From assembly GCA_040235515.1 (NCBI GenBank), contig JBECKX010000179.1:23148-87147 (forward strand): 64,000 bases of DNA. Reading direction: 5' to 3'. The notes beneath the pieces are model-generated. The model was not told where the DNA came from and ran no database searches. It worked only from the letters and a program-made list of their open reading frames with translations. The position numbers and the translations under genes were made by a program. This DNA comes from Candidatus Zixiibacteriota bacterium (GTDB lineage: Bacteria > Zixibacteria > MSB-5A5 > CAIYYT01). Positions 19,189 through 39,379 of the stretch are shown here, in pieces (within the stretch, counting starts at the first letter, position 1; the number at the start of each line of letters is the position of its first letter).

Positions 19189-19434
19189 GTTGATTCCAGG
19201 GCCGTTAATCCTTCTTCAAAACACTATCTACAAAATTGAGCGTTGAGTCGGTCTTCGCAAAGGTGAAATCGCTGCGGCGGATCAGCGGAGAGGCACGAGA
19301 CTGCCGCTTCGAGAGCCTGCGAAATTTGTCTTAAATAAATGTCACGAGAGGATAGAAATTTTTACGAAAATCGTTTTAATTGGGAAGCTGAACTAACGTT
19401 CGTGGCCAAAACTTACATCTTTAGGAGCAATGCA

Positions 19435-20106
19435 ATGCAACAAGAGCAAGCAGCAATGGAAAAGCCGGTCGGACTCCCCCGTATTGGTTCACCAGCCCCT
19501 CATTTTGAAGCCAAAACCACTCACGGGACGTTAAGACTGGAGGATTTCAAAGGCAGTTGGTTGATACTTTTTTCGCACCCTGCCGATTTCACTCCGGTCT
19601 GCACGACTGAGTTCATGGGGTTTGCCGAGATTTATCCGGAGTTGCAGAAGCTTAACACCCAGCTCATCGGCCTCAGTGTCGACAGCGTTTATTCCCACAT
19701 CGCCTGGGTTCGCAATATCGAGGAGAAGATGGGCGTGAAGATCCAATTCCCGGTCATCGCGGACCTTGATATGAAGGTGGCCAAAGCCTACGGCATGATC
19801 CACGAGGGCGAAAGCAGTACCGAGACGAGCCGTGCGGTGTTTGTCATCGACGACAAGCAGGTTGTGCGCGCGATTATCTACTACCCGCTGAGCACCGGTC
19901 GCAACATGGATGAGATTCTGCGTCTCGTCAAGGCGCTCCAGACTGTGGATGCGAACGGCGTTGCCACGCCGGCGAACTGGCGTCCGGGTAACAAGGTGAT
20001 CGTTCCGCCGGCGCAAACTCAGGAAATGGCTGAGGAACGCACGCAGGACAGCAGTTTGGAATGCACCGATTGGTACTTCTGCAAGAAAACTCTGGCAGGC
20101 GCATAG
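19435..20106 (+). CDS. Peroxiredoxin (Prx6/AhpC-like)
   Basis: HPADFTPVCTTEF, GRNMDEILR, TPANW, C-terminal CTDWYFC; AGGAG RBS before ATG 19435. Confidence 0.93.
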   Translation: MQQEQAAMEKPVGLPRIGSPAPHFEAKTTHGTLRLEDFKGSWLILFSHPADFTPVCTTEFMGFAEIYPELQKLNTQLIGLSVDSVYSHIAWVRNIEEKMGVKIQFPVIADLDMKVAKAYGMIHEGESSTETSRAVFVIDDKQVVRAIIYYPLSTGRNMDEILRLVKALQTVDANGVATPANWRPGNKVIVPPAQTQEMAEERTQDSSLECTDWYFCKKTLAGA

Positions 20107-22046: not shown

Positions 22047-22121
22047 TATAGGTGTAGAATGCGAGTAGACTCGGTCACTGAATAAAGGATTTACTTGAGT
22101 TACTTACCTGTTCACTTAATA

Positions 22122-22208
22122 CGGAGAGGCAGGGATTCGAACCCTGGAACCGTTTGCACGGTTAACGGTTTTCGAGACCGCCGCATTCGACCACTCTGCC
22201 ACCTCTCC
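22122..22208 (-). tRNA. tRNA-Ser(CGA), CCA not encoded
   Basis: GGAGAGG acceptor stem, anticodon loop CT-CGA-AA, long variable arm, GGTTCGAATCC T-arm. Confidence 0.96.
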
Positions 22209-22346
22209 GATATGCTTCTTTCCTGCGCAGACAAGCTCCAATCGGGGTAGAGCTGCTCGCTGCTACAGAATCGGGAATATATACGCTTACCCGCTGCTTG
22301 GCAACCGATTAGAACGCTCAAATGGGGTTGGGAGATGTTGGAAAAG

Positions 22347-23504: not shown

Positions 23505-24299
23505 TCAGATTATGAGTTGGCCTCTCATCGTGATTACGGCATCCCCACCGATGAGACAGCGATCATTCTCCAGCTTGAGATGAAACTCGCCACCGCGCTG
23601 TGATGCCTGCAGAGTGTGAAATTCGGACTTGTTCAGCTTCTTGCTCCAGTAGTCTATCAGTGCACACTGGGCCGACCCGGTCGCGGGATCTTCATTGATA
23701 CGGATTCGCGGTGCGAAGTAGCGCGAGATGAAATCGTGACCGTCGCCGGCGCAGGCGGTAAGGCAGACGCCCCAGTAGTCAAGCTTGCCAAAGTAGGCAA
23801 AATCGGGAGTGGCCCGGCGAAGTGCGTCGGCAGAAGAGACCTCGACTACCAGCTTTCCCTTACCCTGAGTCTCAGCCGCCGCTACGGCATCCAGGCCGGT
23901 AGCCTCACCAAAACCGGCGGGGATTGCTGTTTCGCTCAACCGGAGTACGGGGAAATCCATCAACAGCCGTTGGCCGTCACGCTTGACCTTGAGCGTTCCG
24001 GAGAATTTCGTGTAAAACTCGATTTCAGCATCCGGTCGAACGTGCCCGTCTTCGAACAGCACGTGCGCTGAGGCGAGGGTTGCGTGCCCGCACAATTGGA
24101 CCTCGGCGCCGGGGGTGAACCAGCGGAGGTTGTAGCCATCTCTATCGGGATAGAGAAATGCGGTCTCCGACAAGTTCATTTCGAGCGCGACCTGCTGCAT
24201 CCAGGTATCATCAGCGGCGTTTTTCATGAGACACACCGCGGCGGGATTGCCGCAAAATGGCGTCTTCGTGAATGCATCAACCTGTATAATTTCCTGCAT
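23505..24299 (-). CDS. PhzF family isomerase/epimerase
   Basis: QVDAF, GNPAAV, NLSETAF, LRWFTP, LCGHATLA, EDPATGSA. Confidence 0.93.
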   Translation of the reverse strand: MQEIIQVDAFTKTPFCGNPAAVCLMKNAADDTWMQQVALEMNLSETAFLYPDRDGYNLRWFTPGAEVQLCGHATLASAHVLFEDGHVRPDAEIEFYTKFSGTLKVKRDGQRLLMDFPVLRLSETAIPAGFGEATGLDAVAAAETQGKGKLVVEVSSADALRRATPDFAYFGKLDYWGVCLTACAGDGHDFISRYFAPRIRINEDPATGSAQCALIDYWSKKLNKSEFHTLQASQRGGEFHLKLENDRCLIGGDAVITMRGQLII

Positions 24300-24572
24300 A
24301 ATCGAGAATCCTGTGAGACGTTTCGGATTGGCGCCACCTGCGTGGAACCGGACTACTAGAGAGTGTTACGCAGCCACGCCGCTGAAGGTTGTCGTTAGCG
24401 GGGCTCACGATCTGAGTTTGCACCCGGGAGGTGGCGTTAGAAAACCAGCAGGATGGCGGCTAAGAGCGTAGAATAATCATTAACTCTAACCCATCCCACG
24501 TCTGGAGCATGTGTCGATCGAATCAGGTTTCGTCAACGATCATGCTTCCCGTGTTCAGGAAGGACTTCTTGG

Positions 24573-25304
24573 ATGATTGGAATCAAACCTCGATTGAACT
24601 CGCCATTTAGAACCGGTCTGCTTGCAGCCGTATTCAGTTTCCTGATCGCTGCGACAGCAGTTGCGCAGGTGACACCGGCAGACGGCGAAGGCAAGCCAGG
24701 CTCGGTAGATAGACGGATAGCGCCCTCTGCGGATCAGATTCAGCCGCTGCTGATTGGTGCGACTGTACCCTCGGTGCAGGTGGTAACGGCGGATGGAGAA
24801 GCGGTTGATCTGAAGGAGATAGTATCCGGGCAGCCAACGATCCTGATCTTCTATCGCGGAGGTTGGTGACCATACTGCAACTCGCAGTTGGGTCAACTGC
24901 AAGAGATTGAGCCGCAGCTAATTGAGCTTGGCTACCAGATTGTCGCGGTCAGCGCCGACCGCCCTGCGAAGATACGTGAGACGCTGGCGAAGAGCGAGTT
25001 CCGGTACAAGCTCTACTCGGACAGTGCGGCGAATGCGACATCGGCCTTCGGAATAGCGTTCCGGGTCGAGGAGGACTATGTCGAGCGGGTGAAGGCGTTC
25101 GATATTGATATCGAAGGTGCTGCCGGCAACAAGAATCATATCCTGCCGGTACCAGCCGTCTTCATCCTGGACGATACAGGTTTGATAAAATTCGAGTATG
25201 TAAATCCCAGATACCAGGTTCGCATCCATCCTGAGGTTCTGCTGGCTGCCGCAACGGCTGAAGCCCGGCAGTGGTCAAAGGAGAAGTCGAAGGAGAAGAA
25301 GTAG
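24573..25304 (+). CDS. Exported AhpC/TSA peroxiredoxin-like selenoprotein (Sec at codon 99, UxxC)
   Basis: ORFs 24573-24869 and 24888-25304 are in the same frame. Readthrough gives FYRGGW-U-PYCNSQLGQLQ, matching the family motif FYRGGWCPYC. Downstream LPVPAVFI motif; signal peptide. Confidence 0.88.
24867..24905 (+). promoter_or_regulatory. Bacterial SECIS-like hairpin following the in-frame UGA
   Basis: TGA at 24867; stem CTC-GCAGTTG / CAACTGC-aa-GAG with a G-initiated loop (GGT) 21 nt after the UGA. Confidence 0.75.
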
Positions 25305-25508
25305 GCTACATCAGGTTGATCCGGCGCGGAGAGTCTTTTTCGCGAACGGCACATAGGCAAAGGGGTTGATTGTCGCAACAAAGGGGCGCGTTTATCGTAA
25401 TTTAGAGATATAAGAAGATCATAATATTGGAAAAGCTCCATCTTCTTGCCGATGAGATCGAGACGATTTTGCGGCAGATGTGAAATGGCGGCTTTGGGAG
25501 GTTGCGCT

Positions 25509-26219
25509 TTGAATATCAAGAAGGCTGGAATACTCCTGATCGCATTAGGTTTGTTGGCGCTTGTCGTTGTGCCGGCGATTGCCCACGATGCCGACGGTCG
25601 GGAGCACAGACATTATTCGACAGATCGCCAGGTGGCAATCCAGCGAATGGTTGACCGCCAGGTTGACACGCGAGTGCATCGTGACGGCGGAATCCGCTTC
25701 AACTGTGGCTACGACAGTGAACTTGGGGATATCGGATTGCATTTCGGCATCGGTGACGACGACAACTCACGCGTCTACTTCCGTGGCAATGAAGATCTGG
25801 TGATCAGGAATTACGATAAGGGCCCCCGCCGCATGACAATCACACCGCAATACGAATTGCTCGTCAACGGCGATCCGGTCACTCTTGATGCGGAGCAGAA
25901 GGAGCTTGTGGCGGACTTTTACAATACCGCGCACAAAATCCGTTCGAAGTCGGTAAGAATTGGTATTGAGGGCGCCAGAATCGGTGTGCGAGGCGCCAAG
26001 CTGGGAATTCGTGCCGCCGCCGGGGCGTTCCGGATGTTGCTCACTGATTATACCGAGGAGGAGTTCGAGCGCGACATCGAGCGCGAGGCCGACAAGCTCG
26101 AAGCGCAGGCTGAACCGCTTGAGCAGATGGGTGAGGAGGTCGACCGACTCGCGGAGCGGCTTGAGCGTCTGTATGATAAGATGGTGCGCAAGATACCGGA
26201 GATCAGCGAGAGTATTTAG
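25509..26219 (+). CDS. Exported YggN/DUF2884-like protein
   Basis: GGAGG then TTG start; signal peptide; ITPQYELLVNGDPVTLDAEQKEL; helical C-terminus ending IPEI. Confidence 0.6.
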   Translation: MNIKKAGILLIALGLLALVVVPAIAHDADGREHRHYSTDRQVAIQRMVDRQVDTRVHRDGGIRFNCGYDSELGDIGLHFGIGDDDNSRVYFRGNEDLVIRNYDKGPRRMTITPQYELLVNGDPVTLDAEQKELVADFYNTAHKIRSKSVRIGIEGARIGVRGAKLGIRAAAGAFRMLLTDYTEEEFERDIEREADKLEAQAEPLEQMGEEVDRLAERLERLYDKMVRKIPEISESI

Positions 26220-26442: not shown

Positions 26443-27030
26443 TCATGACTTACGGGCGATCAACTGGATCACTGCTGCGGTACCGCTGTGGTGGCGGCCC
26501 TCGTTGACTTCACGTTCCAGCTCCTCCGCGTGTTCGATTGCCAGCCCCTTAAAATCGGACATGGCTTCCGTGAGGCTGTAGAGCATGGTGGGGTCCTTGG
26601 GCCCACCGGTGTTATACTTGAGTTGAGCGGTGGTGAAGAACTCGAGCAGAAAGACGCCGTTCGGGGCAAGACCCCGGATAGAGTCGGCAAAGACCCGGCT
26701 GCGGAGATCGCGCGGGAGGTGACAGAAGATGGCGACAATGCCGTCCCAGGCGCCCGGTTCGATTTTGAATTCGGCAAGATTGGCCTCGATCGTTTCAATC
26801 TCGACACCTTTCTCCTCAGCCAGTCTGCGTGCCTTCTTCAGACCGACGCCAGACTGGTCCACCGCAGTCACCTGATAGCCTTTGATTGCGAGAAACACAC
26901 CGTTGCGCCCTTCACCGGCGCCGATTTCTAGCACGCGGCCTTTGGGGATTTTGTTGAAATGTGCGGCCAGGAACTGATTCGGTTCGGTGCCGTAAACATA
27001 CTCAGGATTGGAATAGCGTTCGTCCCACAT
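26443..27030 (-). CDS. Class I SAM-dependent methyltransferase (TehB-like)
   Basis: MWDERY, YGTEPNQFL, VLEIGAGEGRN, TGGP. Confidence 0.9.
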   Translation of the reverse strand: MWDERYSNPEYVYGTEPNQFLAAHFNKIPKGRVLEIGAGEGRNGVFLAIKGYQVTAVDQSGVGLKKARRLAEEKGVEIETIEANLAEFKIEPGAWDGIVAIFCHLPRDLRSRVFADSIRGLAPNGVFLLEFFTTAQLKYNTGGPKDPTMLYSLTEAMSDFKGLAIEHAEELEREVNEGRHHSGTAAVIQLIARKS

Positions 27031-27041
27031 GGTCTAGATGA

Positions 27042-28253
27042 TTACTCCTTCAGCCTGCTCCGCACTTTGATTTCGCCGTGGAGGGTGCGATGAACCGGGC
27101 ACATGTCGGCTATCTCGAGCAGGCGGTCGCGCTGACCGGCATCAAGATCACCAGTGACTTCAATGACGCGCGTGATCTCATCCACCTTGCCTTTCCTGTT
27201 CTCGCAATCCTCACACTCCTCCGCATGGATCTTGTTGTGATCGAGGTGCACCGTGACCTTATCGACGGGCCATTGCTTGCGGTCGGCATACATTCGGATC
27301 GTCATCGCAGTACAGGTGCCGAGCGCGGCATTGAGGTACTCATAGGGTGACGGACCGAAGTCATTGCCGCCATACTTCTGCGGTTCATCCGCGATCAGTC
27401 GGTGCTTGCCGATCTGGACTTTGGTGGTGTAGTGATCGGTTCCGATCTCGCAGACTACATCATGGTCCGTCTCGAGCTGCCACGGTTCCGGCCTGCCGAC
27501 ATAACGCGCGGCCCACGCGCCAATTACATGGCCGACATAGAAGGAATCGCTACGGCGTTTGATCAGATGGTCGGCGCCATCGAGGCTGATGTATGACTTG
27601 TTTTGCTGTGCTGCTTTGAAGATGCGGGTGGCATTGTCGATCGAGACGACTTCATCATCGGGCGAGTGAATCACGAGCAGAGCCGCGTTGAGGTTGCGAA
27701 TTGCTTCGTTGCTCTCGATAGAGGCGACATCATCCATGAACTGCCGGGTGATGGTGAATTCGCGTCCGGCGATATTGACGGTCGCTTTGCCATCCTCCGA
27801 GAAACCGGCGATCTTCGATGAGAGCAACCTGCCAACATGCTCCGGCGAATGCGGTGCGGCGATCGTCGCTACGGCCCGCACGGAGGAAATCCTGCCACCG
27901 GCTATCAGCACCGCCGCCCCGCCGAGAGAATGACCGAGCAGCAGTTTAGGTGCGTCGTATTCCGATTCGAGGAAGTCGGCGGCGGATACCAGATCCTCCA
28001 CATTCGAGGAGAAGTTGGTGTCCTGAAAATCCCCCTCACTCTCACCGATACCGGTAAAATCAAAGCGCAAAACCGCGAAGCCGTGAGCGCAGAGTGAAGA
28101 CGCTATATTGTAGATCGTGCTGTGATCTTTACCGCAGGTAAAACAATGGGCGAAGATGGCGTAGCTGTGTGGCGGCTGATCGGTGGGAAACTGCAGCCAG
28201 GCCGCGAGCTGTGCACCACCCTGATTTTGGAACGATACTTTTGTGACTCTCAT
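27042..28253 (-). CDS. Alpha/beta hydrolase-OsmC fusion protein
   Basis: AHCFTC, FDFTGIG, GHSLGG, GADH; C-terminal ADEP, ALGTCT and CPVHRTL OsmC domain. Confidence 0.93.
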   Translation of the reverse strand: MRVTKVSFQNQGGAQLAAWLQFPTDQPPHSYAIFAHCFTCGKDHSTIYNIASSLCAHGFAVLRFDFTGIGESEGDFQDTNFSSNVEDLVSAADFLESEYDAPKLLLGHSLGGAAVLIAGGRISSVRAVATIAAPHSPEHVGRLLSSKIAGFSEDGKATVNIAGREFTITRQFMDDVASIESNEAIRNLNAALLVIHSPDDEVVSIDNATRIFKAAQQNKSYISLDGADHLIKRRSDSFYVGHVIGAWAARYVGRPEPWQLETDHDVVCEIGTDHYTTKVQIGKHRLIADEPQKYGGNDFGPSPYEYLNAALGTCTAMTIRMYADRKQWPVDKVTVHLDHNKIHAEECEDCENRKGKVDEITRVIEVTGDLDAGQRDRLLEIADMCPVHRTLHGEIKVRSRLKE

Positions 28254-39286: not shown

Positions 39287-39379
39287 TGGCGGAGTGGCAG
39301 GGATTCGAACCCTGGAGACGCTTTTGGCGCCTACACACTTTCCAGGCGTGCTCCTTCAGCCAGACTCGGACACCACTCC
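39287..39379 (-). tRNA. tRNA-Ser(GGA), CCA encoded
   Basis: GGAGTGG acceptor stem, anticodon loop CT-GGA-AA, long variable arm, GGTTCGAATCC, 3' GCCA. Confidence 0.97.

Follow-up and report, generated by a model that had tools for sequence, protein, structure and literature searches.

The window analysed here (the whole stretch of 64,000 nucleotides, from contig JBECKX010000179.1 of a Candidatus Zixiibacteriota bacterium) contains a real selenoprotein gene, the product of which is very likely exported and represents an additional member of a known family. The gene occupies 24573-25304 on the + strand and encodes, in 243 codons, a protein of AhpC/TSA (PF00578) peroxiredoxin-like (Prx-like) fold with a UxxC motif, as indicated by a PF00578 search and a fold model.

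A single reading frame interrupted by one TGA

Standard ORF calling splits the gene into 24573-24869 (98 aa) and 24888-25304 (138 aa), and fragments of these lengths are filed as separate proteins in the public protein collection. The original prediction held that the two ORFs are one frame broken by a single TGA at a motif Cys, and this was confirmed for all 243 codons. The frame starts with the ATG at 24573, ends with a TAG at 25304 and contains one internal stop. A purine-rich ribosome-binding site, AGGAAGGA (24557-24564, +), was read from the sequence 8 nt before the ATG. The internal stop is an in-frame TGA at codon 99 (24867-24869, +), in the context LIFYRGGW-TGA-PYCNSQLGQLQ, where it replaces the first Cys of FYRGGW-C-PYC and is almost certainly read as selenocysteine (U99). 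When homologues were aligned, Cys stood opposite the TGA in 113 of the 120 best protein matches and was invariant in a 107-row alignment, in agreement with the expected pairing of Cys with TGA. The second residue of the motif, Cys102 (24876-24878, +), was invariant in the family, as judged from the translation and alignment.

The read-through protein of 243 aa matched PF00578 (AhpC-TSA) at 81.4 bits (cut-off 26). None of the 12 NCBIfam families listed for it reached its own cut-off; the best was NF040769 (SelL-related redox protein), at 46 bits versus a cut-off of 120. The re-reading repairs a mis-annotation, in that the two public fragments belong to one selenoprotein gene. Many relatives in public protein sets are probably split into fragments as well.

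Relatives in the phylum and in metagenomes

Among 285 genomes of the phylum, 38 had a match at an E value of 1e-20 or better. Close orthologues besides the gene in its own genome were found in G020 (TGA), G183 (TGA) and G012 (TGT). The G012 gene carried a flag ("2 TAG"), but no TAG was seen inside the gene and its ORF of 227 aa is intact. A DNA pattern for the TGA motif matched in eight of the 285 genomes, all eight of which had selB over the cut-off, and in at least 120 metagenomic stretches.

The TGA-motif loci comprised a close subfamily, in which the N-terminus is short and hydrophobic, and a distant sister subfamily, in which it forms a helical extension; a fully supported branch separated the two in a quick IQ-TREE tree. 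The close group was defined by a local alignment score of at least 339 to the protein studied here, with L177 and L083 added by hand, and after removal of duplicates it contained 29 TGA and 31 Cys loci among the matches listed. The sister subfamily (L047, L096-L215) accounted for most of the TGA matches listed, possessed other SECIS stems and mostly lacked a signal peptide; its Cys forms in the phylum often had a hydrophobic N-terminus. Two distant homologues were observed separately. L048 (G115) has a TAG inside its CxxC motif (CP*C) and is a broken gene or an error, and a homologue at G196:C21:49694-50191 contains one TGA and lies outside the active-site pattern matches.

Fold, active site and likely function

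The protein had been predicted to be peroxiredoxin-like, which held for the fold and failed for the peroxidatic triad. A model of the mature Cys form (pLDDT 92.4) adopted a Prx/thioredoxin fold. Its top structural matches were peroxiredoxins (Z 20.4, rmsd 1.6, 151 residues aligned), and ResA/DsbE-type reductases ranked behind them (Z 15.2). A search of solved structures by sequence found none close (best E 4e-7), and a Cys homologue compared with the ESM Atlas gave PF00578/PF08534 clusters only.

When the protein was aligned with BCP, PrxU and 1-Cys Prx from the same genome, Cys102 occupied the peroxidatic position, and UxxC (U99-P-Y-C102) stood in place of TxxU. The Pro of the PxxxT/SxxC motif of true peroxiredoxins was replaced by Arg95 and the Thr by Sec99. 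Further, a thioredoxin-type proline, Pro194 (25152-25154, +), was aligned at the position of their catalytic Arg. The invariant Arg residues of the UxxC family are R95 and R217. The protein thus combines a Prx fold with an active site of thioredoxin type. As all three peroxiredoxin residues (Pro, Thr and Arg) have been exchanged, it is most likely an exported UxxC thiol-disulfide oxidoreductase.

In thioredoxin-family chemistry, the first motif residue is the nucleophile and the second is the resolving residue. The genome contains genes for a complete DsbD and for one further DsbD-like protein. Judging from the motif, this chemistry and the presence of DsbD, we somewhat favour a scheme in which the selenolate of Sec99 would attack a disulfide or an oxidised cysteine of an envelope protein, Cys102 would resolve the adduct to an Se-S bond and a DsbD-type membrane relay would re-reduce the protein. 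The re-reduction step is proposed by analogy with Caulobacter PrxL/ScsB, as presented in the available text of PMC3322552. Three Cys homologues (P0050, P0064 and P0107) are fusion proteins, in which the added domains are of nitroreductase (PF00881), rhodanese (PF00581) and thioredoxin-like type, and these fusions are possible hints to partners.

It is rather unlikely that the exported selenoprotein acts mainly as a peroxidase, in which Sec99 directly reduces H2O2 or lipid hydroperoxides as the first-position Sec of glutathione peroxidases does. Such a role would suit a protein whose best fold matches are peroxiredoxins and whose invariant R95 and R217 could replace the lost Arg, and the available text of PMC13188914 describes GPx-like proteins with Sec at the first position of UxxT; but the Pro, Thr and Arg of peroxiredoxins are all replaced, and the genome possesses ordinary Prx genes, including that of the Sec-containing PrxU. 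Further, according to the accessible part of PMC3322552, an exported PrxL (CDD PRX_like1, a different subfamily) lacks peroxidase activity. We therefore retain the thiol-disulfide oxidoreductase as the preferred reading.

N-terminus and probable export

Residues 1-31 (24573-24665, +) probably constitute a signal peptide that directs the chain into the general secretory route and is then cleaved off, with K/R/R in the n-region, the h-region LLAAVFSFLIAA and AVA-Q at residues 29-32. The original prediction of a signal peptide ending at AVA-Q agreed with the n/h/c layout and the A-X-A site, both read by eye, and with the hydrophobic N-termini of homologues; cleavage at AVA|Q is the part that is predicted from these features. 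Neither a twin-arginine motif nor a lipobox was seen when residues 1-31 were read by eye.

Among the matches listed, a hydrophobic N-terminus was present in 24 of 26 assessable TGA loci and in all 30 assessable Cys loci of the close subfamily, and in 102 of 110 protein matches, compared with 2 of 72 assessable TGA loci of the sister subfamily, as counted with a crude hydropathy rule after excluding loci that were cut upstream (3 close TGA, 1 close Cys and 12 sister loci). One close TGA homologue, L127:667-714 (-), was clearly without a signal peptide. The UxxC protein is thus very likely exported via its signal peptide. With high probability, the 31-residue peptide would direct export of the chain, and a 212-residue periplasmic protein of thioredoxin fold would remain.

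An improbable alternative is that the selenoprotein is not released to the periplasm, either because the N-terminal segment stays in place and anchors the protein in the membrane or because translation starts downstream and the product is cytoplasmic. L127 and 70 of the 72 assessable TGA members of the sister subfamily among the matches listed, all of which lack the segment, accord with this alternative, but a good ribosome-binding site precedes the ATG at 24573, the n/h/c layout with AVA-Q is classic and the hydrophobic N-terminus prevails in the assessable close TGA and Cys loci and in the protein matches counted above. Release of the protein to the periplasm is accordingly the reading that we carry forward.

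Selenocysteine machinery and genetic code

To decode UGA as selenocysteine, a genome needs selA, selB, selC and selD, and every one of these genes was present in the genome (3.59 Mb in 218 contigs; completeness 100). In genome-wide searches, selA (459 bits), selB (307), selD (400) and tRNA-Sec (66; TCA anticodon) all scored over their cut-offs. In agreement with the original remark that these genes are absent from the window, the matches lie on other contigs: selA is on C64 and continues on C173, selB is on C173 and selD is on C60, and the tRNA-Sec adjoins selA. selC, selA and selB apparently form one operon, which a contig end interrupts within selA (C64:16-1265 (-) and C173:12-2100 (+)). In the 738-aa SelD protein (C60, L011:1396-3612, -), a NifS-type cysteine desulfurase domain precedes the SelD part, which is itself of the Cys form; the NifS-SelD protein is a candidate selenium-salvage fusion.

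TGA is the stop codon of 805 ORFs of at least 250 codons in this genome; thus, the genetic code is not reassigned. At the default threshold, ARAGORN detected one tRNA with a TCA anticodon, which is the Rfam tRNA-Sec next to selA. A second candidate (C10:10111-10193) appeared only at a relaxed threshold, was absent from the 14 Rfam tRNA-Sec matches and is probably spurious. Decoding of the UGA as Cys or Trp, through a suppressor tRNA such as this weak candidate or through a reassigned code, is very improbable in view of the 805 long ORFs that TGA terminates and of the identity of the sole default-threshold TCA tRNA. Decoding as selenocysteine is the reading that fits the machinery.

Of 151 genomes of the phylum that were searched, 144 had tRNA-Sec. 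Since almost the whole phylum uses selenocysteine, the co-occurrence of the TGA form with selB discriminates little. The UxxC gene extends the small selenoproteome of this lineage.

When further selenoproteins were sought ab initio from coding scores, antisense shadows dominated the output; after filtering, which did not make the screen exhaustive, six further TGA-interrupted candidates were tested against NCBIfam, and four matched known selenoprotein families. These were PrxU (L222:1315-2022, -), at 390 bits and over its cut-off, and three candidates under their cut-offs, namely HesB-like (L235:353-700, -), DUF1573/OS_HP2 (L236:657-1598, +) and GSU2204-like (L237:381-1433, -), the last of which is cut by a contig end. 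The candidates on C72 and C188 had no NCBIfam match. The DUF1573 candidate also has a hydrophobic N-terminus, and the hairpin downstream of the PrxU codon was weak and failed the SECIS rule used.

A SECIS hairpin supported by comparison with relatives

The hairpin described in the original prediction was found in every detail. A perfect 7-bp upper stem (24884-24900, +), formed by GCAGTTG (24884-24890) and CAACTGC (24894-24900), encloses a GGT (GGU) loop (24891-24893) that lies 21 nt past the UGA, and the stem is extended across an AA bulge by CTC/GAG (CUC/GAG in the RNA), so that the whole element spans 24881-24905. The bacterial SECIS consensus in the available text of PMC13188914 comprises a loop of 3-9 nt, a stem of 4-16 bp, a G in the first two loop positions, a spacing of 16-37 nt and an MFE at or below -7.5. 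The present hairpin falls within these bounds with its 3-nt GG loop, 7 bp plus extension, spacing of 21 nt and MFE of the extended form.

Folding of 24877-24907 gave -10.2 kcal/mol (z -2.66), and 4 of 200 shuffles were as good; the energy was -9.4 to -10.2 kcal/mol for the extended hairpin and -7.4 kcal/mol for the bare 17-mer. As a background in the same genome, a Watson-Crick stem of at least 7 bp under the same loop and spacing rules followed 9 of the 805 long-ORF TGA stops, and such a stem followed 60 of the 805 when G-U pairs were allowed. The hairpin alone is only modestly unusual. Further, the lowest-energy free-RNA fold of 24867-24930 was a different hairpin, not a SECIS, that pairs the UGA itself. 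This alternative (24867-24895) pairs UGACC with GGUCA and excludes the SECIS. It is not conserved in most homologues, which lack GGUCA, and was therefore not treated as a conserved switch.

Comparison with relatives was decisive. Among the matches listed, all seven pairs were present in 26 of 29 distinct close TGA loci and in none of 31 Cys loci, the latter being mostly Flavobacterium-like with other peptides; the GGN loop was present in all 29 TGA loci. Synonymous codon choice on the same peptides would be expected to yield 1.42 seven-pair stems in 29 loci, versus the 26 observed. The best single control was L025, a Cys orthologue of the same family that shares the QLGQL peptide and whose genome contains both selA and selB; it forms only three of the seven pairs.

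In an ungapped alignment of the TGA loci, 94.8% of cells paired and five of eight pairs changed on both sides. The covariation score was reached by none of 500 shuffles, and slid controls fell to 19-48%; note that the sequences are related, so that kin are not independent, and that the structure was taken from the query's own sequence. At columns 22/30, C-G was changed to U-A in nine sequences via silent changes in both codons, and another pair changed along with a Gln/Glu replacement. The three invariant pairs are dictated by the peptide sequence and carry no weight as evidence. From the covariation and compensatory changes among TGA loci, rather than from folding alone, we infer that the hairpin is a real SECIS, as had been proposed. 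For SECIS prediction, this compact GGN-triloop element with its synonymous covariation makes a clean example.

Read support is thin, which could point to a pseudogene with a nonsense mutation or to an error in sequencing or assembly: the TGA codon is spanned, with no difference there, by one public contig (run X1, depth 3.8, 24707-25022), which possibly shares its source material with the assembly. This alternative is refuted for practical purposes by the TGA at this codon in close orthologues from two other genomes of the phylum (L024 and L026) and in many metagenomes, by the matched regions of TGA-bearing relatives, which show that one stop only, and by the stem counts and covariation.

Given the sel genes and the hairpin, SelB with Sec-tRNA would almost certainly bind the hairpin, whose GGU loop lies 21 nt downstream of the UGA, and insert Sec at codon 99. 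When this decoding and the export of the chain are considered jointly, the gene is likely to encode a selenoprotein that is exported and belongs to the Prx-like thiol:disulfide oxidoreductases (PF00578, UxxC). The original prediction of UGA recoding and of an exported Sec oxidoreductase of 243 aa was supported in this form, with Sec incorporation and export both predicted from the genome.

Possible switching between Cys and Sec forms

The tree mentioned above contained 137 rows, and the active-site residue was set to C in all of them. Within the close subfamily, Sec forms were interleaved with Cys forms, with 11 label changes, three of which were forced by well-supported branches. The tree included one third of the distant loci, roughly half of the other Cys loci and one half of the protein matches, which were labelled Cys from sequence alone. 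QLGQL was present in 23 of the 113 Cys forms among the best 120 protein matches. With this peptide present in those Cys forms, the SECIS could be gained or lost through silent changes alone.

The QLGQL counts, the stemless L025 and the interleaved tree allow a tentative reading, to which we give somewhat less than even weight: the proteins may form a distinct, unmodelled exported clade in which an ancestral QLG(Q/E)L was pre-adapted for a SECIS, and several switches between Cys and Sec may have occurred because synonymous substitutions are enough to create or destroy the hairpin. If so, the clade would offer natural matched Sec/Cys pairs of one periplasmic reductase, and such pairs could test why bacteria place selenium outside the cytoplasm.

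Genomic neighbourhood

The UxxC gene stands alone, divergent from a PhzF-family gene. Only the same-genus genome G020 keeps the divergent PhzF and tadA-like genes, and no conserved neighbours were recognisable at the orthologous loci of G183 and G012. Neighbourhood was therefore rejected as a clue to function: since neighbours are not conserved beyond the genus, the context ties the UxxC gene to neither DsbD nor a substrate. A promoter and terminator scan of 24250-25520 gave one promoter-like match, on the wrong strand and at chance level, and no terminator.

Several other genes were observed around the locus. An ordinary 1-Cys/Prx6-type peroxiredoxin is encoded 4.5 kb upstream (19339-20106, +). 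Downstream lie a DUF2884-like gene (25446-26219, +), a TehB-like methyltransferase gene (26443-27030, -) and an alpha/beta-hydrolase-OsmC fusion (27042-28253, -). The contig also carries tRNA-Ser genes at 22121-22209 (-; CGA) and 39287-39379 (-; GGA). Elsewhere, at L217:1-2484 (+), a DsbD/ScsB-like gene is followed by that of another redoxin with a hydrophobic N-terminus, an arrangement that resembles scsB-prxL.

Comparison with known systems

The original prediction stated that bacterial Prx-like UxxC selenoproteins are known, and such members of PF00578 are indeed listed in the available parts of PMC1088965, PMC9312934 and PMC13188914. Further, the GOS survey (PMC2398784) reported 225 "Prx-like 1" sequences, and its sequence file, as far as accessible, contains FYRGGWUPYC itself, 67 occurrences of WUPYC and entries with N-termini resembling signal peptides. 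Extracytoplasmic selenoproteins are described in the accessible text of 10.1101/2022.07.06.499078 and are also the subject of PMC13510729. Among the papers listed in the literature searches, which covered a minority of subscription papers, no paper on the exact FYRGGW/cd02970 clade, none on exported Prx-like selenoproteins and no dedicated selenoprotein study of the phylum was found.

The UxxC protein shares with "Prx-like 1" the Pfam family, the Sec position, the motif and exported-looking members; the published group is broad, however, and neither of the two RGGWU sequences in the available file has QLG(Q/E)L. Cys proteins named "AhpC/TSA family" or "peroxiredoxin-like family" are 50-61% identical over the full length, possess CPYC and mostly have a hydrophobic N-terminus, but they carry Cys for Sec and had no SECIS in the loci checked. 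No measured function for these homologues was found in the literature searched. Their NCBI names map to CDD PRX_like2 according to the available text of PMC13188914, and PRX_like2 (cd02970), which the accessible part of PMC3514251 describes as CxxC proteins without the Prx triad and of unknown mechanism, fits the present protein by that description and by the names of its homologues.

True peroxiredoxins (BCP/PrxQ, AhpE and PrxU) share the fold and a Cys at the position of Cys102, but PxxxTxxC is replaced by RGGWUPYC and the catalytic Arg by Pro in the UxxC protein. In Sec peroxiredoxins the Sec is last (TxxU), whereas in the UxxC protein it is first. Periplasmic TlpA/ResA/DsbE reductases are likewise exported and have a CxxC-type motif, the thioredoxin-type Pro and a similar fold, but the UxxC protein scored far under their family cut-offs (ResA, 30.8 versus 170; DsbE, 26.6 versus 123). 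Caulobacter PrxL, in the available text of PMC3322552, is exported and Prx-like without the Prx residues, and is kept reduced by the DsbD-class relay ScsB. In contrast to the UxxC protein, it belongs to another subfamily (CDD PRX_like1), has two distant Cys rather than CxxC and contains no Sec; further, prxL often lies near scsB, a linkage that the UxxC gene lacks. Since the published selenoprotein set already includes this family, its motif and members that seem to be exported, the UxxC protein is not new in kind. It opens no new mechanism and takes its place beside the Prx-like and extracytoplasmic selenoproteins that are already known.
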